Source: Candidatus Oxydemutatoraceae bacterium (GTDB lineage Bacteria; Pseudomonadota; Gammaproteobacteria; Poriferisulfidales; Oxydemutatoraceae). Taken from it: 64,000 bases of DNA. Shown one piece after another: positions 9,969 through 60,019 of this stretch. The number at the start of each line of letters is the position of its first letter. The stretch's first letter is position 1. The notes under the pieces are model-generated. The model made no database searches, had not been told where the DNA came from, and worked only from the letters and a program-made list of their open reading frames with translations. The translations under genes and the position numbers were made by a program. The stretch is from assembly GCA_965220085.1 (NCBI GenBank), contig CBDCOZ010000003.1:1568001-1632000 (forward strand). Reading direction: 5' to 3'.

Positions 9969-10455
9969 TATCGTAGCGGGCCTGCGAGAAGGAGTGTCGT
10001 GCGAGTGCTGCGGCTTGCTCGCGCTATCGCAGCGGGCCTGCGAGAAGGGGCGTGTCGTGCGAGTGCTGCGGCTTGCTTGCGCTATCGCAGTCGGCATTCA
10101 AGAAGGGGTGTGTCGTGCGAGCGCCGAGGATGGCTCGCGCTATCGCAGTCGGCATTCAAGGAGGGCGTGTCGTGCAAGCCACCGAGGCTTGCTTGCGTTA
10201 TCGCAGTCGGCCTTCAAGAGGGAGTGTGTCGTGCGAGTGCTGCGGCTTGCTTGCGTTATCGCAGTCGGCCTTCAAGAGGGAGTGTGTCGTGCGAGTGCTG
10301 CGGCTTGCTTGCGCTATCGCAGTCGGCATTCAAGAAGGGGTGTGTCGTGCGAGTGCTGCAGCTTGCTTGCGCTATCGCAGTCGGCATTCAAGAAGGGGTG
10401 TGTCGTGCGAGTGCTGCGGCTTGCTCGCGCTATCGCAGCGGGCCTTCCAAGAAGA
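9969..10455. repeat. Tandem array of eight ~58-bp units continuous with the 3' end of the FLEGPLR-tail gene
   Basis: Anchor TATCG recurs at 9969, 10025, 10083, 10141, 10199, 10257, 10315, 10373 and 10431 (spacing 56, then 58); typical unit TATCGCAGTCGGCATTCAAGAAGGGGTGTGTCGTGCGAGTGCTGCGGCTTGCTTGCGC; the last anchor overlaps the gene's stop codon. Confidence 0.93.
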
Positions 10456-12006
10456 GGCGCAGGCGCAAGCGTATATCAACCCCCAGGTTGATGGTCATCG
10501 TATAGGTGTCTGCGCTGTCTGCGACGCCATCGTGCACTGTGAAGGTGAAACTGGCGAAGTCGGAGGCGGCGCGAGCGCCCATCGGGGGATACCAGGTGAA
10601 AGTGCCATTGTCCAGATTGGCAACGGTCACCGAGGCGTCGTCGGTCACTGCGGTACCGCCGATGCGCAACGTGCCCGTGCCGACTGCTATGGTCTCAACG
10701 ATGGTGATGGCGACCAGGGCGGCGTTGTTATCCTCATCCATGAACGGGAAGTCGGAGACCTTGAAGACGAAGGGCGCGGCTAAGGTTGTGGTTGTGGGCA
10801 CCTTCACCGAATTGTCGGCGCTGGTAGGGGCATCGTTGACATTGCGGATGATGTTGCCTGTGGTGCAGCGTCGCTCGCTGTTGGGCGGCGTGAAGTTGTC
10901 CTCAAAGGATACGCACACCCGCACAAACTTGTCGACATGCGCCTGCAACGGCGTGAAAGTGGCGGCGGTGGCCCCGTCAATATCGGCGTAGTTGGCGTCT
11001 GTCAGGGGCGCGTCATTGCCCGGAGGATCAGCCTGTTGCCATTGCCAGGCGATGGTGGAGCGGTTAATACCGCTATTGGCATCTGCGATAGTGCCGGTGG
11101 TGGCGGTCAGGGTCACATCCTCGTTCCAGGGCGGCGCTGTCACATCGGGCAGACCGATGGCCTCCACCTGCGCCGTCGGCAACACCAGGTTTATGGTGAT
11201 GGTGGCCATGTTGCTCCGGGAGAGGGTGGGTGAAAATACGCTGAAAGTAAAGCTGGCATAGCCCTCAGCAGGTGCCGTTGCATCTTCGGGCAACCTGTAC
11301 ACTGGGCCGTTAATTCCTCCGAAGTCAGGGAGTAGTGCATTATTACCCTCCCCCCAGATAAGCCCAGCGGCACTATGAATAGAACCAGCGCAGTAGCAGG
11401 TTGGGTTTCTATTACTACACCTCCAATGTCATCGTCATCTTCGTCAAAGAAGGTGAAGTCATCTGACGAGAAGGCATAGCTCGCGGTACCCAGTGGAATC
11501 TCAATAGTGTTGTCCTGGGCAACAGGCAAATCATCCACATTCACCACGGCGGCGACGGAGGACCAGCATCGGGTCTCGCTGTTGCTGGCGTCATCCTCAA
11601 AGGTCGCACAGGCGCGGATGAACTTGCCGACATGGACCTGCAATGGGGTGAACATGGCCTCGGTCGACGTGGTGTTGGTTATATCAATGTAGGCGCTTTC
11701 CGTCGGTGTGCCGCTTACCGGGGCATCGGCTTGTGACCACTGCCAAGTCGGCGTGAACACGGTGAGGCCATCGGCGGTATCGCCTATCGTGCCTTGGGCT
11801 GCGGTCAGTGCGTTGTCCTCGTTGGGTCCCGTCGTAGTCAGATTGGTGCCGTCGGCTGCCGTCACCGCCGGTTCGCCGGTGGCGTTCTGCGCCTGCGCTT
11901 GAGCGCAAACAACAAACAGCGCCGGCAACAGAAGCGAGCAGAGGCTGCGCCGTATCATCGTTGCTCCCCGCCGCGCGGGGGCGGTATCGTAAGTTTTGCA
12001 GTTCAT
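10430..12006 (-). pseudogene. Exported Ig/cadherin-like repeat protein with LRLRLFLEGPLR tail, copy 1, split by an internal frameshift
   Basis: ORF 11191..12105 gives the signal peptide (MNCKTYD...SLLLPALFVVCAQAQAQ) and the first repeats; ORF 10430..11302 continues the same repeats in another frame and ends DIRLRLRLFLEGPLR*. Joined, they are colinear with the paralog at 50712. Confidence 0.8.
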
Positions 12007-13090: not shown

Positions 13091-13174
13091 GCATCATTCC
13101 GATTAGCCCGATGAAAGAGTCGCCCGCACACAACGCCGATGCCGTCACATCTCAGTTTGCATAAGTATTTCCGC

Positions 13175-15565
13175 ATGCCTCCTTCCTTCCCCTGCATTTT
13201 TGCCAGGGTTTGCGCAACACTGTTCGCCGGTGTCTTCGCCGCGAACACCGCACACGCACAAGCCGGCCAATCCAACTGCACCCTCAACGAGGCGCTCACC
13301 CAAGTTCCCTCCGCCCAGCGCGCGCAGGTCTCCATGCAATTTGAGGCCTGCGCGGACAAGGACTGGGCGGCGCAAAAGCATTTCCTCTTCGGCGAAGGGT
13401 TCGGCTTTGACTTCTGCTACTGCAATGTCCGAGTGCTGGATGCGTCCTCGTCGAGCGAATGCGACCACCCTGCGACGACCTCCGCACTCAGCGCCACCGT
13501 GGACAACAACTTCAACCTCCACTATTACTTCGGCGCGACCCTGCAGTATCTTCCGGAGCGGACGGAGGAAAACAAGGACGCCTGCTTTGTGGCGCATTGT
13601 TTGGACGGGAAGGAGCCGTCGGGGTTTAATATGAACGGCGAAACCGAATGCGCAACGCCCTCAACGGCGGTGACGGTTCGCGCCATAGCGATGCCGGCAG
13701 AGGGCGGGAGCGCTGCCATTATGGGCGCGACCACCGCCTCGGTGATTCTCAACACCACCGCAACCATCGTCGCCACTCCGGCGGAGGGATGGTATGTCGA
13801 TCGGTGGGAAGGCGACGGCGGCGCTTGCGACGGTCAAACCGGCAGGCTCGAAGGTTTCAGGGGCGTGGACACAGACGAGAAATCTTGTTCGCTGCCCGCC
13901 AGCGCCGGACTGACTGTGACGGCGCATTTTGCGTTGGCGCGGGTGACGGTTCGCGCCATAGCGATGCCGGCGGAAGGCGGGAGCGCTGCCATTATGGGCG
14001 CGACCACCGCCTCGGTGATTTCAAACACCACCGCAACCATCGTCGCCACTCCGGCGGAGGGGTGGTATGTTGACCGATGGGAGGGGGACGGCGGGGCCTG
14101 CGCCGGACAAGTTGGCGGGTTTGGAAGTTCCGGAGCGGCGGACACGGATGAAAAATCCTGTTCGCTGGCCGCGAGCGCCGGACTGCGGGTGACGGTTCGT
14201 TTCGCGTCGGCGCTGTGCGTTTTCAGCGAACTTCCGTCGGGGCTGCAAACCGAGTTGGTCTCCCTGCAGATTGACGCGTGCAACGCGAAAGGATGGGGGG
14301 CGCAAAAGCATATTTTCGGCGGGGCGGAAGTGTGCCACTGCAACATCAATGCGTGGGACGGGAGGAGCGGCGACCCGGCCCGGCAGTCGTGTTTGGACGG
14401 CTCCCTCCCGCCGCATCGAACCTCCGGGTTTTCCTCGCTTGGAGAGACAAACTCCAACACGGTCGCCCCATTTTACTTCGGCGCGACCCTGCAGTATCTT
14501 CCGGAGCGGACGGAGGAAAACAAGGACGATTGTTTTGTGGCGCGATGTTCGGGGTTGACGGAGCCGTCGGGTTTCAACACAAACGGGGAGACGGAATGCC
14601 TCGCGGCAAGCGGGGCGATTTGCGGGGGTTTGACTCCGGCGAAAAATTTTGACGGCGTCGCCTGCGTGGAAGGTTGCGCGACGGGAGCGACATTGAATTC
14701 GGCTACGAACACTTGCGAATGCGGCACGGGCAATCCTAACGACTGCCTGACGCCGAGCGAGGCGGTTTGCGCGGAGCTGACTCCGCCGAAGTTTTTTGAC
14801 GGGTCGGATTGCGTTGATTTTGCGACTTGCGCGGGGCTGTTGACTTTGAATCGGCAGCATAACGGGTGCGAGTGCCGCGCGCCGAATGTTGGGACGGCTT
14901 CGGATTGTCGGGCGCCGAATCCGATTGTTTGCGCCGCGCCGGCGGTTCGGCATCCGACGGCGAATGTTTGCCAATGCAATGCGCCGAATGTTGGGACGGG
15001 GGCGGACTGCAAAGCGCCAAGCGCGGAGGTTTGCGCGGCGCTGAGTCCGGGGAGGTTTTTTGACGGGTCGGGCTGCGTTGATTTTGCGGAGTGCGCGGGG
15101 CTGTTGGTTTTGAATCCGGCGCGCAACGGCTGCGAGTGCCGCGCGCCGAATGTTGGGACGGCTTCGGATTGTCGGGCGCCGAATCCGATTGTTTGCGCCG
15201 CGCCGGCGGTTCGGCATCCGACGGCGAATGTTTGCCAATGCAATGCGCCGAATGTTGGGACGGGGGCGGACTGCAAAGCGCCAAGCGCGGAGGTTTGCGG
15301 GGGGCTGAGTCCGGGGAGGTTTTTTGACGGGTCGGGCTGCGTTGATTTTGCGGAGTGCGCGATGGCGGCGACATTGAATGCGGCGGCGAATACGTGCGAA
15401 TGCAACTCGCCCAACGAAGGGACGGCGCAGGATTGCAAGGCGCCGAGCGCGGAAGTGTGCGGGGATTTGACGCCGGCGAAGCGCTTTGACGGAACTGCCT
15501 GCGTCGATGCGCCCGAAGACATCAACCTGCGTCTGCGTATCTTCCTTGAGGGCCCGTTGCGATAG
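13175..15565 (+). CDS. Exported cysteine-rich repeat protein with LRLRIFLEGPLR tail
   Basis: Signal peptide MPPSFPCIFARVCATLFAGVFAANTAHA|Q; two ~140-aa Cys modules (YFGATLQYLPERTEENKD), two ~91-aa beta-rich repeats (ATPAEGWYVDRWEGD, resembling divergent InlB B repeats), 88-aa Cys-rich tandem repeats; ends INLRLRIFLEGPLR*. Alternative start 13139. Confidence 0.88.
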   Translation: MPPSFPCIFARVCATLFAGVFAANTAHAQAGQSNCTLNEALTQVPSAQRAQVSMQFEACADKDWAAQKHFLFGEGFGFDFCYCNVRVLDASSSSECDHPATTSALSATVDNNFNLHYYFGATLQYLPERTEENKDACFVAHCLDGKEPSGFNMNGETECATPSTAVTVRAIAMPAEGGSAAIMGATTASVILNTTATIVATPAEGWYVDRWEGDGGACDGQTGRLEGFRGVDTDEKSCSLPASAGLTVTAHFALARVTVRAIAMPAEGGSAAIMGATTASVISNTTATIVATPAEGWYVDRWEGDGGACAGQVGGFGSSGAADTDEKSCSLAASAGLRVTVRFASALCVFSELPSGLQTELVSLQIDACNAKGWGAQKHIFGGAEVCHCNINAWDGRSGDPARQSCLDGSLPPHRTSGFSSLGETNSNTVAPFYFGATLQYLPERTEENKDDCFVARCSGLTEPSGFNTNGETECLAASGAICGGLTPAKNFDGVACVEGCATGATLNSATNTCECGTGNPNDCLTPSEAVCAELTPPKFFDGSDCVDFATCAGLLTLNRQHNGCECRAPNVGTASDCRAPNPIVCAAPAVRHPTANVCQCNAPNVGTGADCKAPSAEVCAALSPGRFFDGSGCVDFAECAGLLVLNPARNGCECRAPNVGTASDCRAPNPIVCAAPAVRHPTANVCQCNAPNVGTGADCKAPSAEVCGGLSPGRFFDGSGCVDFAECAMAATLNAAANTCECNSPNEGTAQDCKAPSAEVCGDLTPAKRFDGTACVDAPEDINLRLRIFLEGPLR
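14790..15360 (+). repeat. Intragenic 264-bp near-perfect tandem repeat (88 aa)
   Basis: GACGGGTCGG anchor at 14798, 15062 and 15326. Confidence 0.9.
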
Positions 15566-36840: not shown

Positions 36841-36917
36841 AATGCACACGAACAACTCAGTTGTTCGCGAATAGTTTAATGCACACGAACAACACTCGGT
36901 TGTTTGCGGGTTGCTTA
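36841..36917. repeat. Two tandem ~37-bp hairpin units between tRNA-Val and thrS
   Basis: AATGCACACGAACAAC-TCA-GTTGTTCG and AATGCACACGAACAAC-ACTCG-GTTGTTTG. Confidence 0.8.
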
Positions 36918-36918
36918 A

Positions 36919-36995
36919 TGGTAGGCGCGATTGGATTCGAACCAACGACCCCCACCATGTCAAGGTGGTGCTCTAACCAACTGAGCTACGCGCCT
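36919..36995 (-). tRNA. tRNA-Val (GAC)
   Basis: AGGCGCGTAGCTCAG...TTGACAT...GTTCGAATCC...ACCA. Confidence 0.95.
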
Positions 36996-40394: not shown

Positions 40395-41525
40395 TTATTT
40401 GCTCCGTAATTTGAATTTGGAGCGGTACCCTTCCATCAGATACGCCACACGCTGTTCGCGCTCGGGGCTGTCCGATGATCGCTTGGCCCGCCCTTCCGGG
40501 GCGGCGCCGACCTTTATCGTCTCAATAGCCTGATGCGCGCCGCCCCGCACTTCGCATTCAATCATAAATAATTTGTAGTTATCCGGCGGCGACACATCGG
40601 TGCAAGCGCGCAAATGCGGAAAATCAAAGTATTGATACACACGATAGTGTTCCCGTAACAGATCAAAATAGCGCGGCTCCCTCTCGTCGGTCATGATATA
40701 GAGCGTCGCGCCTTGTGGCAAAAAAGTTTGAAGGCGATCGAGGATTGCTTGCGGCGATGTGGCCTTGTCTATGGCGGGAATGCCTTCGGCGAACTCGCCT
40801 CGCCGAATGTGCAGGGCGTAGTATTTTTCCCCCAGAACGGCAATCACATCCTGTGCGGCTGTCTTTATATCTTGCGCCACCGGCAAATGAACGATGCAAA
40901 CCGGCCAATAGCGATAATGCAGCGATCTCGGCAGCGACATCAGCAGGCGCCTGACCCACGGACGGTTCAGGTTTATATTCCTATGTCTCGGGTAACGCAC
41001 TTTATTCCACCAATAATCGGGCCACCTGCACCGCCAGTTAGTCCACTCTGCGTTGAACGCATCGGCGCGGGCGATCAATTTATAGCGGCGGTTTTTCCTC
41101 AGGCTTATTCTGCGGTGCGCGGCGATTTGCGCGAACTCGCCTCGCGCAAAATTCAATCGTTGCGATTCATCGTATTCGATATATTTGAAGTCCCCGCCGG
41201 AGATGACCCGGTTCTTGAAAAAGCGCGCCGCCAACCCATCGTATCGCACGTGTATGCTGATCTTATCCAGATCGTAATAACACTTCCACGAAGACTCAAT
41301 CCTGTAATCGAGATTATGCGACGGTCGTAATATCGGCGGCAACAGAATCGGAATGCGGTCCAACATGACCGCCTCCTCTATGAACGCCTCCAGATTACGC
41401 GTGCAATGCGTCAAACCGCGCCCGATATCATCGTCTATGCGCGCATCTTTTTGCAGCACAAATGCGCCGTCATCGCCCGCTCCCGCCGAGTACGGCGTTG
41501 CCAAATATAAAAGGTATCTATCCAT
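40395..41525 (-). CDS. Putative GDP-fucose-dependent fucosyltransferase-like protein, paralog 1
   Basis: YYALHIRRGE and LYIMTDE resemble motifs I and II of the alpha2/alpha6/O-fucosyltransferase superfamily; clear paralog of 58883..60019. Confidence 0.6.
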   Translation of the reverse strand: MDRYLLYLATPYSAGAGDDGAFVLQKDARIDDDIGRGLTHCTRNLEAFIEEAVMLDRIPILLPPILRPSHNLDYRIESSWKCYYDLDKISIHVRYDGLAARFFKNRVISGGDFKYIEYDESQRLNFARGEFAQIAAHRRISLRKNRRYKLIARADAFNAEWTNWRCRWPDYWWNKVRYPRHRNINLNRPWVRRLLMSLPRSLHYRYWPVCIVHLPVAQDIKTAAQDVIAVLGEKYYALHIRRGEFAEGIPAIDKATSPQAILDRLQTFLPQGATLYIMTDEREPRYFDLLREHYRVYQYFDFPHLRACTDVSPPDNYKLFMIECEVRGGAHQAIETIKVGAAPEGRAKRSSDSPEREQRVAYLMEGYRSKFKLRSK

Positions 41526-50711: not shown

Positions 50712-52354
50712 CTACCGCAACGGCCCTTCCAGGAAGACGCGCAACCGCAAGCGCAAGCGCTCCGCCAGATGTATGGTCATCATATGGGTTGCGCTGGATA
50801 AGGCGCCATCGCTCACGGTGAAGGTGAAACTGGCGTAATTGGGCTGTGCGAGCTGGTCCGATGCCGGATAGTAGGTGATGGCGCCGATGTTGTCAGCCAT
50901 CACAATGTGATCCACGGAAGCGGGGGAACCGCCCACTCGCAAAGTGCCGACGGATGGCAGAGTCTTTATGGTGATGGCGGTCAGGCTGTCGCCTTCCTCG
51001 TCCATGTACGGGAAGTCGGAGACCTTGAAAGCGTAGGGCGCGTTTTCGGTTGCCCTGATAGATACCGTCACCGAATCGTCGCTACTGACGGGGGCATCGT
51101 TGATGCTGGATATGCGGGCGGCGTCGGAGCAGAGGGCAGGGGATGCTACGGTGCCGCCTTCGGATGCCGGGGCGGCGTGTTTGTCCATGAAGAATGCGCA
51201 GGCTCTTATGTGCATTCCCCCCTGGGCCTGCAATGGGGTGAAAGTGGCCCCGGTGGCCCCGGCTATGGGACCGTAGTCGGCATCCGCCGGGGCGCCGCTG
51301 GCAGGGGCCGGGGCCTGGTACCATTGCCATTGCAGGGTGTCAGTGTCTATGCCGTTGGGTTCGGTTATGCCTCTGACGCTGGCGGTAAGCATCACATCCT
51401 CGTTGCTAACAGCGCCGATGGGGGTTAATGCGGCGAGGAGCGGAATGGGTCTGTATACCGTGGGTTTGCCGGCGGCGGCCTGCCCCCGGCTGTTTATTAT
51501 GTCTATGGTGAGGGTGGCGGCTTCGGCGGCTTCATCGGCACGGGTGGCGCGACCGCCATTATCCCGCACTCTGTATGTGAATGTGGCATAGCCCGCGCCA
51601 ACGGCGGGGTTGGCATCCGGATAGTATGCCAGATAATCCACTTCGGTGACATCCAGAAAATTGTTGGCACGGATACATCTGGGGTTGGCAGTGCAATGAG
51701 TGCTAAGAGATGAGCCATCCAAAAACGCATCCGCCAGAATACCCCGCGTGGGCACGGACACTATGTAGATGCCATCGAGGGTGTTGCCATCCTCATCGGA
51801 AAAGGGGAAGTCCGCCCGCGCAAAGAGGTACGGGGCGGCGGAACTGGCGTTGTCCGGCACCATTATGGCGCTGTCGCCGCCAACAGGCCGGTCGGCCACA
51901 TTGGCCACTGCGGCGACCGAGGTCCAGCATCGGGTCTCGTTGTTGCCGCCGTCATCGGCAAAGGCGGCGCAGACGCGGATGAACTTGCCGACATGCTCCT
52001 GCAACGGGGTGAATGTGGCGGCGGTCGCCGTGGTGATGTTGGCGTAGGCGCCGCCGCCAGTGTCGGCCACGCTCCATTGCCAAGTCGGCGTGAAGGTGGT
52101 GATGCCATCGGCATCGCCTATCATGCCTTGGACTGCGGTCAGTGCGCTGTCCTCATTGGGCCCCGTCGTGGTCAGGTTGGTGTTGTCCGCCGCCGTCACC
52201 GTCGGGGTACCGGTGGCGTTCTGCGCTTGCGCTTGGGTGCAGACGGCAAACAGAGCCGGCAGAATAAGCGTCCAGAGGCTAAGCCGAGCTAGTGTCGCCC
52301 ACCGATGCGGGGGGGGGGGGGGGGGGTATAGGTATTATTAATTTTTAAGCTCAT
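50712..52354 (-). CDS. Exported Ig/cadherin-like repeat protein with LRLRVFLEGPLR tail, copy 2; out of frame at a C18 tract
   Basis: ATG 52354 MSLKINNTY, C18, then HRWATLARLSLWTLILPALFAVCTQAQAQ|NATG continuing into ORF 50712..52199; total 1643 nt, so 16 or 19 C would restore the frame. Confidence 0.85.
52309..52326 (-). repeat. Homopolymer G18 (C18 on the coding strand)
   Basis: Counted directly; starts 28 nt after the first base of the ATG. Confidence 0.95.
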
Positions 52355-52610
52355 GCTATTTTTTAGGATCATGGTCTTTCTCCTGACAGATGTAGCCGTA
52401 CGGTAGTATGTACACAAACGCTTAATGAGGCACAGTAATAAGAGGCACAAACAACACTCGGTTGTTTGTGTGTGTTTAATCTAATTGTCTGTGGTTTCTT
52501 CAAATTATTTGTATTCCATAAACTGTTTGCGGATTGCTTAATGTCGCACCATACCATAAATTCAGTTATTTACAAGTTCAACTGTTGCTTTCCCCTGATG
52601 GATTCCGTGC

Positions 52611-52638
52611 ACTATACCACAAAGTGAGTCCTTTGCAA
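52611..52638 (-). promoter_or_regulatory. Putative sigma70 promoter of copy 2
   Basis: TTGCAA-N16-TATAGT with TG extension and upstream A tract. Confidence 0.55.
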
Positions 52639-52913
52639 GCGCTTTTTTTTCAAATCGCAATGACTGCCTCTGGCGACCGCTTGCGTCGGCGTTGCCGAGG
52701 CGTTGCTATTGCCTGTCAGCCTTTGCCGAAGCCAGCAATCCGGCATGTTTCAGTCATTTGCAAGCGTATCCGCCCCCTTGTGCGCCCATAATACTCCCCT
52801 TCCCGCCGCTTAAACATGCTTTAAGCAGTGTTCACATATCGCTTGCGCACCCAACACTCCCGCCGGTGCGCCTGCGGGGATGGTGCGATAGCAACGTGTC
52901 GGAGCACTCGCGC

Positions 52914-54888
52914 TTACCGCAACGGGCCTTCAAGGAAAACGCGCAAGCGCAAGCGCAAGGCGGTTGCCACCACACGAGCGTCGGCGGAGCACAGCGGCCC
53001 CTCGGCGGTGCCTATGCTATCGGTGAAGCTGGCGCAGGCGCGGATGTATCGACCGGCATGTGCTTGCCGGGGAGTAAAAATAACATCGGTAGCGCCGGTG
53101 ATGGCGGCGTAGGCGTTGTCCATCGGGGCGCCACTGTCCGGGGCCGGGGCAGATTGCCATTGCCAGCGGATGCTACCCCGGTTGATGCCGTTGGGTTCGA
53201 TGATGCCATCTGCGGATGCAGCCAGCGGTATGTCCTGCAGGTAAGCGGTGTCGGTGGCAAGGGCGGCAGTCACCGTGGGTGCGCCGGTGGCATCCGTCGG
53301 GTCGGAGGTAATCAAGTTTATCGTGAGGGTGGCGATGCGGACGCTGGCGTTGTTGGTGCCCGCCGGGTCATCGCCGTTGTCGGTCACATTGAATCTGAAG
53401 GTAGCGTAGCTACTCTGGGCACTCTGCCCGCTGGCAGGGTAGTACGTAAGGTCCGCGATGTCGGCAACGGCTATGGTGTCGTCCGCCATGGCGGCGGCGG
53501 AGCCGTTGCGCAGGGCGCCGGATGCCGGCAACGATTCCAGAGTGACGCTGGCCAAGTCATCGCCATCCTCGTCGGCGAACGGGAAGTCGCTCGCCTTGAA
53601 AGCGTAGGGGCTGGCCATCGTCGCACCCATAGGCACATTGATGAAGCCGTCTTGCGCCACCGGCGCATCGTTGACATTGGTTGTCCGGACTGCGGCGGAA
53701 CAGAGCGGGCCCTCCTCTGCCGGGGTGGCGTGGCGATCCATAAAGGTTGCGCAGACTCTTATGTATTGGTCTGTACGGGCCTGCGTAATGACGAATGCTT
53801 CGGCGGTGGCGCCGGCTATGGCGGTGTATGCGCCGACGGCCGGGGTGCCGCTGGCCGGGGTCGGGGCAGATTGCCATTCCCACCTCAGAGTTCTCCAGTC
53901 TATGCTGTTGAGATCGGCAATGCCAAAGTAGTTGGCGGTCACCCGGGCGCCCTCGGCGGCGCTGGCGGACGGTGATGTTGTGGGCGCGCCGGTGGCCGCC
54001 ATCTGGTCCGGCGATGTCAGATCTATGAGCATGAAATTAACTCCGGTGTGATTGATGCCATCATCGTTGTCGGCCACCGGCCGGTAGACAAAGGTGGCAT
54101 AGAATCCGGTGGGTTGCTGACCGGGTATCGGGTACCAGGCCAGAGCGCCGGCGGTCAATTGGGCCACGGTTACGGTTACGGGGTTTCCGGTGCCAGTAGA
54201 GACGGGGTTGCCATTCAGGGTCAGGGTGCCCCCCGGTATCAGGCTATCAAAGGTGATGGCGGCCAGCATATCGCCATCGGGGTCTATGAACAGAAAGTCT
54301 GACGCCTTAAACCGGTATGGATTGTCGGCGGTGGCGGATGCCGGCACCGCACCGCTGTGGCGCAGGGAGGTTTGGGGCAGGTCGTTGACATCGGTCACTC
54401 TGACGGGGGCAGAGCAGATGCTGGCGGTGCGTATGCGGCTGTCCTCGGTGGCGGGGTCGCCGCCCTCGGCGGTACCCCGGCCATCGGTGTAAAAGACGCA
54501 CAGGCGCAGGTTCTTGTTCACATGGTCTTGCGAGAGCGGGGCGTATGTGTTGACGTCCCAAGCCGCCTCTTCCCATCCCAGGCCGACGGTAGTACTGAGT
54601 TGCCAACTGAAGTCAAATTGTCCTGCCGCGGGCAGGCCATCCTCATCGCTCAGGCCGGTCACGCTGGCATTGACTGTCTGCATTTGGGCCACGGTGGTGA
54701 TGAGGTCGGCGCTCCCGTCCAACACCATGCCGATGGCGCCCTGCGGCGCAGTGTTGGTCTGCGCTTGCGCTTGGGTGCAGACGGCAAACAGGGCCGACAG
54801 AATAAGCGCCCAGAGACTAAGCCGAGTTAGTGTCGCCCACCGATGCGGGGGGGGGGGGGGTATGAGTATTATTAATTTGTAAGTTCAT
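52914..54888 (-). CDS. Exported Ig/cadherin-like repeat protein with LRLRVFLEGPLR tail, copy 3; out of frame at a C14 tract
   Basis: ATG 54888 MNLQINNTH, C14, then signal peptide ending CTQAQAQ continuing into ORF 52914..54728; total 1975 nt, so 13 or 16 C would restore the frame. Confidence 0.85.
54847..54860 (-). repeat. Homopolymer G14 (C14 on the coding strand)
   Basis: Counted directly; same position relative to the ATG as the C18 tract. Confidence 0.95.
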
Positions 54889-55162
54889 GCTATTTTTTAG
54901 GTTCATTGTTCTACTCCTGATGAATGCAGTTGTACGGTGTATGTACACAAACAACATTTAATGAGACACAGTAATGAGAGGCACAAACAACTTTGTTGTT
55001 TGTGTGTGTTTAATCTAATTGTCTGTGGTTTCTTCAAATTGTTTGTATTCCATAAACTGTTTGCGGATTGTTTAATGTCGCACTGTATCATAAATTCGGT
55101 CATTATTATAAATTCAGTTATTTACAAGTTCAACTGTTGCTTTCCCCTGATGGATTCCGTGC

Positions 55163-55190
55163 ACTATACCACAAAGTGAGTCCTTTGCAA
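55163..55190 (-). promoter_or_regulatory. Putative sigma70 promoter of copy 3
   Basis: Same TTGCAA-N16-TATAGT sequence as at 52611-52638. Confidence 0.55.
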
Positions 55191-55516
55191 GCGCTTTTTT
55201 TTCAAATATCAGCGACCGCCTCCGGCGGGCGGTTGCGTCGGCGTTGCCGAGGCGTTGCCATTGCCTGTCGGCCTTTGTCAAAGCCGGCAATCCGGCATGT
55301 TTCCGGCATGTTTCAGTCATTTACGAGTGTATCCGCCACCCCCTTGTGCGCACTCCATAATACCACCTTCCCCGCCGCTTAAACGTACTTTAAGCAGTGT
55401 TCACATATCGCTTGCGCGCCTCATAACTCCCTTCTCCGCCGCCGATTACTCGCGCTATTATGCGGGTCAGGGGTATGGTGGCACGGCGGTATTGCTACCG
55501 CGCCGCTGTTGCCAGA

Positions 55517-58882: not shown

Positions 58883-60019
58883 TCACGCGCCTCTTCTCGG
58901 CAGCAAATCACGCGTGTCATCCATCAAATATGCCACCTTGCGCCGATACGCAAGCTCTTTTGCGGCGGCGGCGGTTTTCTTGAGGCGCGGCGGCGGCAGG
59001 TTATTGCGCACCGTTTCGACTATCTTATGCGCCCCGTCTCTGATCTCCGATTCAATCATAAACAGCTTGTGGTTATCCGGCGGTATCGCATTGATATAAG
59101 CGGCTAATTCGGGGAAATCAGAGTATTGCCACACCTTGTAATGCGCCTTCAGCGGGTCAAAATAATGCGGCTGCCTCTCATCCGTCATGATGTAGATCGT
59201 GACACCGTCCGGCAACAAGCGCTTGAGTCTTGCAATAATTGCTTCCGGAGTCGTCGCTTTGTCCATGTCGGGAAATTTGATGGCGCAATCCCCGCGCCTG
59301 ATATGCAGCGCATAATATTCGTCTCCCAATACGGCGCGCACACGCCGCGCCGTCTCCCTTATATCCGGCGCTCGCGGTAACGAAACAGCCGCCGTCGGCC
59401 AGTAACGATAGTGAAAGAGTTTGGCCAGCGACACCGTAAAATATTTGATCCATTGCTTGTTAAGAGCGTAGCCAAAATATTTTTTGCGCCGCACCTTGAC
59501 CCAGCGGTAGCGAGGCCATTTGACATTCCACGAGTGCCATTCGCGATGAGCGGTGTCGTGACGAATAATCAGGCGGCAATCGCGATTCTTTTTCAGGCTG
59601 ATCCTGCGCTGTGACGGAACCGTCGCCGACTCATCCGGCGACAAAGACAATCGATTGAAATCGTCACGCTCCAGGTACTCAAAATCCGCTCCGCTGATCA
59701 CCCGGTTCTTGAAAAAATACGATGCCAGGCCCGTATACTCAATCTCTATCCGGATGTTATCCAAGTCAATATAATCGCGCCACGACGGTTCGATGCGGCA
59801 GCCCAGATTGTGGGTCTCGGTCAATATCGGCGGCAGCAGAAGCGGGATGCGCCCCAGCATCGCCGCTTCGCCAATCAATGCGCTCAGGTTTCCGACAGTA
59901 TGGGTGATGCCGTGCCCGAGACCCTCTCTGATATGCGCATCCTCGCGCACAGACAAGCGGCCTTGCGCATCGGCGCATATTGAGTATGGCGTTGCCAAAT
60001 ATGCGAGGTATTTCTTCAT
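58883..60019 (-). CDS. Putative fucosyltransferase-like protein, paralog 2
   Basis: YYALHIRRGD, IYIMTDE, PPDNHKLFMIE; colinear with 40395..41525. Confidence 0.6.
   Translation of the reverse strand: MKKYLAYLATPYSICADAQGRLSVREDAHIREGLGHGITHTVGNLSALIGEAAMLGRIPLLLPPILTETHNLGCRIEPSWRDYIDLDNIRIEIEYTGLASYFFKNRVISGADFEYLERDDFNRLSLSPDESATVPSQRRISLKKNRDCRLIIRHDTAHREWHSWNVKWPRYRWVKVRRKKYFGYALNKQWIKYFTVSLAKLFHYRYWPTAAVSLPRAPDIRETARRVRAVLGDEYYALHIRRGDCAIKFPDMDKATTPEAIIARLKRLLPDGVTIYIMTDERQPHYFDPLKAHYKVWQYSDFPELAAYINAIPPDNHKLFMIESEIRDGAHKIVETVRNNLPPPRLKKTAAAAKELAYRRKVAYLMDDTRDLLPRRGA

Follow-up and report, generated by a model that had tools for sequence, protein, structure and literature searches.

Poly-C tracts in the leaders of two tandem tagged genes point to phase variation in a family of gammaproteobacterial repeat proteins

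Two tandem paralogous genes in a 64,000-nt window of the Candidatus Oxydemutatoraceae bacterium genome (contig CBDCOZ010000003.1; "the window" denotes the whole stretch of DNA analysed) each carry an uninterrupted run of cytosines ahead of a Sec signal peptide and behind a start codon that has a Shine-Dalgarno site. The pair, referred to here as genes 2 and 3, occupies the interval from moaE to moaB and encodes secreted, adhesin-like repeat proteins that end in the same C-terminal tag (LRLRLRVFLEGPLR). We consider slipped-strand phase variation at these two genes, and at many loci of their paralogues in the same genome, to be the best explanation (probability roughly 0.75), based on the anatomy of the genes and the recurrence of the device within the family. 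Every structural hallmark of a homopolymer phase-variable locus is present: the tracts are long, pure and above background, they lie inside the reading frame and downstream of the only usable start, and one class of tract lengths gives the full protein while the rest give early stops. The difference between the two genes (18 vs 14 nt in modules that are 90–94% identical) and the proline runs of 4–7 in 10 of 41 paralogues, all within one assembly, may reflect variation in tract length. An initial annotation of this DNA had proposed ON/OFF switching by slipped-strand mispairing; the structural anatomy and the proline runs of the paralogues fit this proposal, whereas the switching itself is what we infer from them. 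The host or phage pressure suggested in that annotation finds no support in the analysis, which gave no sign of a host-associated life.

Two long poly-C tracts ahead of the signal peptides

Genes 2 and 3 both lie on the minus strand, and their coding sequences contain runs of C18 and C14 that appear on the plus strand as G18 (52309–52326) and G14 (54847–54860), in agreement with the positions and lengths given in the initial annotation. No other G/C run in the window (56% G+C) exceeds 7 nt, a length reached by a single C7, and the maximum found across 80 unrelated loci (1,211,206 nt), taken as a control from an IlvC-based search of species-representative genomes, was 10. According to an excerpt of PMC2831843, prokaryotic genes as a rule contain fewer poly(C) and poly(G) runs than expected. 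Tract lengths at both genes are far beyond what chance would give.

The leader that precedes the tract extends over 52327–52372 in gene 2 (MILKNSMSLKINNTYT) and over 54861–54906 in gene 3 (MNLKNSMNLQINNTHT). Each leader contains two in-frame ATG codons, at 52372–52370 and 52354–52352 in gene 2 and at 54906–54904 and 54888–54886 in gene 3. The upstream ATG (52372 and 54906) is the likelier start, as it is the one with a Shine-Dalgarno site: AGGAG, as read from the sequence, lies 7 nt before it in both genes (52380–52384 and 54914–54918). Counted from this codon, there are 46 nt to the tract and the leader is 15 residues long. The 28 nt between start and tract in the initial annotation holds for the ATGs at 52354 and 54888, but not for the likelier start 18 nt upstream; the frame arithmetic is the same from either codon. 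Past the tract, the ON frame encodes a Sec signal peptide at 52224–52310 in gene 2 (PHRWATLARLSLWTLILPALFAVCTQAQA) and 54762–54848 in gene 3 (PHRWATLTRLSLWALILSALFAVCTQAQA), with the consensus PHRWATL(A/T)RLSLW..LFAVCTQAQA comprising a basic n-region, a hydrophobic core and an AQA cleavage site. Neither signal peptide contains an in-frame ATG, GTG or TTG. The tract had initially been placed within the region coding for the signal peptide, which it does adjoin; however, it sits in an N-terminal extension just before the basic n-region and outside the hydrophobic core. Behind the tracts, the open frame of gene 2 (50712–52310) has 532 codons plus a stop, encodes immunoglobulin (Ig)/cadherin-like repeats and ends with the tag at 50715–50756, and that of gene 3 (52914–54848) has 644 codons plus a stop, belongs to the same repeat family and ends with the same tag at 52917–52958.

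The homologous position of the two tracts follows from a duplicated 5' module that genes 2 and 3 share. Approximately 400 nt upstream of each start (52372–52914 and 54906–55300), including the promoter-like site and the 5' untranslated region (UTR), are duplicated at 90% identity with a single 18-nt indel, and the full module occurs in the window at these two genes only. Upstream of the tract the modules are 90.5% identical (352 of 389 aligned positions), and from the tract to the cleavage site 94.3% identical (83 of 88), and right past the cleavage site identity drops to 48%. Tract length differs by 4 nt (18 vs 14) between these otherwise near-identical modules. The promoter-like sites of gene 2 (52611–52638) and gene 3 (55163–55190), both on the minus strand and both consensus matches only, have identical hexamers and read TTGCAA, a 16-nt spacer and TG-TATAGT. 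It is fair to infer that the two genes would switch independently, because they share no promoter-like site, ribosome-binding site or tract.

The 5' UTRs are approximately 230 nt long and AT-rich. They had no Rfam match (the only Rfam matches in the window were seven tRNAs), and the predicted fold of the gene 2 UTR was no better than those of shuffled sequences (z = -0.56), leaving a structured leader RNA unsupported. Both UTRs contain a hairpin element (CACAAACAAC...GTTGTTTGTG; 52446–52470 and 54982–55006), and a similar piece occurs at 36884–36919, near a tRNA gene upstream of thrS. The element is possibly a small dispersed palindromic repeat.

Reading frame and ON/OFF state as assembled

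The long frames of genes 2 and 3 begin inside the C runs, and translation from the ATG does not reach them at the assembled tract lengths. With 18 C (0 mod 3), gene 2 reads MILKNSMSLKINNTYTPPPPPRIGGRH before a stop (27 residues), and with 14 C (2 mod 3), gene 3 reads MNLKNSMNLQINNTHTPPPPASVGDTNSA before a stop (29 residues). When only the run length was varied by script from 8 to 25, six of the 18 lengths (10, 13, 16, 19, 22 and 25) gave a full-length product, with 551–556 codons to the stop in gene 2 and 663–668 in gene 3; the other 12 lengths led to a stop at codon 25–33, that is, to peptides of 24–32 residues. Genes 2 and 3 are therefore OFF at the lengths of this one assembly, in two different wrong frames, and each is a single base from an ON length (19 and 13, respectively). 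This bears out both the rule stated in the initial annotation, that the frame is kept only when run length mod 3 equals 1, and its reading of the two genes as OFF and one base from ON. Translation from a start downstream of the tract had been named there as an observation that would speak against switching. Past the tract, no in-frame ATG, GTG or TTG occurs until the cleavage site has been passed, at codon 38 of gene 2 and codon 41 of gene 3, and with no in-frame start between tract and signal peptide, a downstream start cannot give an exported protein.

Slipped-strand mispairing at such long C tracts would be expected to change their length frequently during replication, so that each gene would flip reversibly between an ON state, in which a pre-protein with a polyproline stretch is made and exported, and an OFF state, in which only a short peptide is made. 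With a similar device at the same leader position in many paralogues, a population would present shifting combinations of surface proteins.

Proline runs at the same leader position across the family

Two protein searches identified at least 41 distinct relatives, 295–1127 aa in the size covered, on the same 2,046,636-bp contig as the window proteins. The tag was present at the C-terminus of 40 of the 41 relatives listed, P0192 being without it. Grouped by our reading of the annotated N-termini, and thus at the protein level, 10 of the 41 had four to seven consecutive leader prolines in frame with the signal peptide (P0007, P0010, P0027, P0031, P0042, P0192, P0193, P0194, P0197 and P0203), and 21 had a leader and signal peptide with no proline run. 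The annotated start fell inside the signal peptide in four (P0011, P0013, P0115 and P0191), and no signal peptide was annotated in six, namely the two window genes (P0155 and P0001), P0005, P0163, P0195 and P0199. Besides the two window genes, eight relatives are thus annotated with an incomplete signal peptide or none. The question raised initially, whether other tagged genes have a run at the same position, is answered at the protein level by the 10 relatives with proline runs. Counting the two window genes, at least 12 paralogues of a single family, about a third of the 41, would have the device.

Leaders without a run follow the pattern MN(R/K)Q(I/V)FNT(A/T)P..., and the proline runs fall exactly at the conserved T-(A/T)-P, which points to the tract having arisen where a single conserved proline codon expanded. 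Proline runs at the homologous leader position were also found in relatives from elsewhere, with five prolines in two autotransporters from other genomes (P0009 and P0028) and four in a 2015-residue relative (P0082). In some autotransporters a normal Sec signal peptide is preceded by further N-terminal residues that start MN(K/R), the extended signal peptide region. The tract-free paralogue leaders, which read MNRQIFNTAP..., bear a resemblance to this region and no more than that: the corresponding Pfam model matched none of the eight leaders scanned at E values up to 10.

Comparison with known phase-variable systems

The proposed mechanism is the standard one for contingency loci, and the closest documented cases are the autotransporters NalP and MspA of Neisseria meningitidis. 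In the excerpt of PMC3723659, these proteins have polyC tracts of 6–15 nt, and NalP is ON at 7, 10 or 13. As in genes 2 and 3, the poly-C tract is part of the coding region for a protein that is secreted or found at the surface and, for NalP, the same 1-mod-3 rule applies; the passenger repeats of genes 2 and 3 also have autotransporter relatives. However, the tracts described here are longer (14 and 18 nt), and the proteins have the 14-residue tag in place of a β-barrel. Moreover, the excerpt concerns single genes, whereas here at least 12 paralogues of one family have the device and switching is predicted from sequence. A tract that adjoins the region coding for a signal peptide is described for the nanH3 sialidase of Gardnerella, where, in the portion of 10.1101/2020.09.16.300947 drawn on, a C homopolymer of 8–14 nt is reported and the annotation of OFF alleles shows no signal peptide, as is the case for P0001 and P0155 of the window in the protein database. 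As far as that portion goes, nanH3 differs in that the tract follows the signal peptide and the locus is a single gene of a Gram-positive host, whereas here the tract comes before the signal peptide and the arrangement is repeated within a family.

At the genome scale, the arrangement is similar to the poly-G/C "phasomes" of Campylobacter and Neisseria (PMC6321876 and PMC5320596, in excerpt) and to the 5' homopolymers described as general switches in the excerpt of PMC2831843: many loci per genome, mostly for surface structures, have simple repeats near their 5' gene ends. The phasomes in these excerpts belong to host-restricted pathogens or commensals of known biology, whereas here they would belong to a gammaproteobacterium in which the loci are paralogues sharing one leader.

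Alternative explanations and points against switching

Several observations weigh against phase variation or against parts of it. The tract lengths at both loci are one assembly's values, so that length variation in the population is an extrapolation from them, and the OFF calls may be wrong because homopolymers of 14–18 nt are unreliable in assemblies. No substitution separates the two tracts over 14 aligned positions, which is not significant at a flank divergence of 6–10%. The proline runs of the paralogues, known as protein, may be encoded by something other than pure C, and P0042, P0007 and others have a Met directly before the signal peptide, from which it follows that a tract in these paralogues might not silence the gene. 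A third family copy in the window (copy 1; 10430–12006, minus strand) is broken at a site that is not a repeat; family members evidently decay, and loss of a gene could begin with an OFF tract. Lastly, the OFF state of genes 2 and 3 may be leaky through slippage or frameshifting of the kind considered below.

The unreliability of homopolymer lengths leads to an alternative in which only the assembled lengths are wrong: the tracts would exist, with stable lengths that keep the frame (e.g. 19 and 13), and would encode a polyproline spacer linking the N-terminal extension to the signal peptide. In favour of this, assemblies are nowhere more prone to error than at long homopolymers, a one-base change would turn either gene ON, and the proline run is in frame in 10 of 41 paralogues. 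We nonetheless consider it unlikely. CCC is a minority codon (71 of the 339 proline codons in 12 housekeeping genes of the window, against 254 for CCG), so a pure-C run is not expected from selection for prolines, and a spacer selected as peptide should use the preferred CCG. The near-identical modules differ by 4 nt exactly in the tract. Indel noise is not general in this assembly, as the housekeeping genes of the window are full length when aligned to their family models. The eight further paralogues annotated without a complete signal peptide also speak against a spacer, and even a pure C19 or C13 would still be hypermutable, given what is established about slipped-strand mispairing. Alternatively, with more than 40 redundant members in the family, the frameshifts could mark genes that are starting to become pseudogenes, and switching would not be under selection. 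Such decay would be in keeping with the lesion in copy 1, with the missing tag of P0192 and with the N-terminal truncation of several family members in the annotation, but it is the least probable of the accounts weighed here: frames of 532 and 644 codons are still open behind the tracts in 56% G+C sequence, genes 2 and 3 have both kept the promoter-like site, Shine-Dalgarno site, start codon and signal peptide, and the sole lesion sits at one easily reverting site.

A further possibility is that the tracts act as a rheostat. Long homopolymers provoke RNA-polymerase slippage, CCC-C provokes ribosomal +1 shifts, and consecutive prolines need EF-P for their translation. Polymerase slippage on the run of 14–18 nt or ribosomal frameshifting on CCC-C could restore the frame in a fraction of transcripts or translation events, in which case OFF would amount to low constitutive expression with an EF-P-dependent output. 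The run lengths are well above those of known transcriptional slippage at other homopolymers, gene 3 needs only a +1 shift, of the type described for proline codons, and the ON-frame leader holds at least four consecutive prolines. However, this mechanism would modify a DNA-level switch rather than replace it, and as an explanation in its own right we regard it as rather improbable.

Slipped-strand phase variation therefore remains the explanation we favour. A wider reading, which we offer tentatively and consider more doubtful, is that of genome-wide combinatorial surface variation: more than 40 barrel-less paralogues would derive from autotransporter passengers and carry a lineage-restricted 14-residue tag as a possible new sorting or anchoring signal, at least 12 of them would be switched singly by leader poly-C, and cassettes of the mature part would be exchanged. 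The sharp loss of homology at the cleavage site, together with inverted repeats of 13–14 nt (see below), suggests such cassette exchange on top of ON/OFF switching.

Homopolymer switches are textbook knowledge for a few host-adapted pathogens; here they would occur in a 2.05-Mb genome of a gammaproteobacterium with no close named relatives. The unusually long tracts, the presence of the device in about a third of a 41-member family and the undescribed tag go beyond the textbook cases. If switching were confirmed, the tagged proteins would be marked out as the part of the cell surface under diversifying pressure, and cells in the ON and OFF states would offer a handle on the role of the tag. 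There is also a warning for annotation, as the public protein sets contain both genes, and probably eight others, in a form that is truncated at the N-terminus and has no signal peptide.

Encoded proteins and the C-terminal tag

Ig/cadherin-type repeats were detected above the Pfam threshold in gene 2 (Big_9 at 38.3 bits, cut-off 23.6, with several cadherin-like models below threshold) and through homology in gene 3, which had a sub-threshold match to Cadherin_4 only but is homologous to gene 2 (38% identity, E 3e-86). NCBIfam gave only sub-threshold ZirU-type matches. A profile of the family matched 20,453 representative proteins at E ≤ 0.001, with giant repeat adhesins as the best matches, and had no match among PDB sequences at E ≤ 0.01. 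Gene 2 is homologous to an autotransporter passenger, with 44% identity over 459 residues to that of P0019, which bears the β-barrel domain PF03797 (E 4e-90). The barrel itself was absent from genes 2 and 3 and copy 1 in the Pfam search and, by precomputed domain annotation, from all 41 relatives on the same contig, compared with its presence in 10 relatives on other contigs. Without a β-barrel, genes 2 and 3 are not classical (type Va) autotransporters.

LRLRL(R)xFLEGPLR forms the C-terminus of all three copies of the family in the window. The tag comprises 14 residues with no hydrophobic span, and no NCBIfam model of a sorting signal (PEP-CTERM, GlyGly-CTERM, LPXTG and the like) matched it at E values up to 0.1; genes 2 and 3 thus appear to fall outside all known families of C-terminal sorting tags. 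The string FLEGPL returned no papers, and no paper on the tagged family was found, which is weak evidence of absence. Among the matches listed, the only tagged proteins from outside this genome come from contigs of 230,214 and 215,991 bp, and a family-alignment scan for the tag motif together with an IRVC motif found no match in 185,579 species-representative genomes. We rejected the notion that the tag is a barrel remnant within the autotransporter relatives, as a FLEG-type motif occurred in none of the non-tagged matches. A fourth tagged gene in the window (13139–15565, plus strand) encodes an 808-aa protein that has Cys-rich repeats, an ordinary signal peptide and no tract, and ends in NLRLRIFLEGPLR. 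This protein has tandem repeats of 264–273 bp at the DNA level and a weak match to the InlB B-repeat, and is unrelated to the Ig/cadherin family. The tag is therefore a feature in its own right and is not bound to a single kind of passenger.

Copy 1 has the family repeats and the tag, and its own ATG lies directly before the signal peptide. The leader contains only a C5 run (11977–11981), consistent with the short in-frame GCC CCC GCG noted initially for the leader starting at ATG 12006; a separate frameshift near 11380–11400, at a site that is not a homopolymer, splits the gene into two overlapping frames, and copy 1 is probably a pseudogene. It is located between rpsL and rpoC in an otherwise conserved gene block. 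Directly 3' of it, at 9994–10454, is a 58-bp tandem repeat of 7.9 copies, each unit consisting of the last ~25 nt of tag-coding DNA and ~33 nt of downstream sequence.

Perfect inverted repeats of 13–14 nt flank the mature coding regions of gene 2 (50748–50760 and 52222–52235) and gene 3 (52944–52957 and 54760–54773). They consist of (GCGCAA)n DNA that encodes AQAQ at the cleavage site and (TTGCGC)n DNA that encodes LRLRL in the tag, and the fall in homology between the two genes, from 94% down to 48%, coincides precisely with the cleavage-site repeat. The inverted repeats could be a coincidence of two simple repeats or the boundaries of cassettes.

Genomic setting

The window is part of the core chromosome, with ribosomal protein genes, tuf, fusA, rpoBC, pheST, thrS, uvrB, ilvCH and molybdenum-cofactor genes. 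The lineage seems barely sampled: among species representatives, IlvC reached at most 72–73% identity, to proteins from assorted gammaproteobacterial metagenome-assembled genomes (MAGs), and synteny around IlvC in representative MAGs gave nothing usable. In the protein database the genome is represented by one contig of 2,046,636 bp. UvrB was 78% identical to the nearest named proteins, from MAGs labelled "Chromatiales bacterium" and "Gammaproteobacteria bacterium", and 90% and 82% identical to two metagenomic proteins. A Neisseria-like host was rejected, as none of the eight dialects of the Neisseriaceae DNA-uptake sequence (DUS) had a match anywhere in the window; counts of uptake signal sequences (USS) were not informative. 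Two open reading frames on the minus strand had no match in Pfam or NCBIfam (58883–60019 and 40395–41525; 378 and 376 aa), and they are paralogous to each other, with long conserved stretches that include YALHIRRG(D/E).

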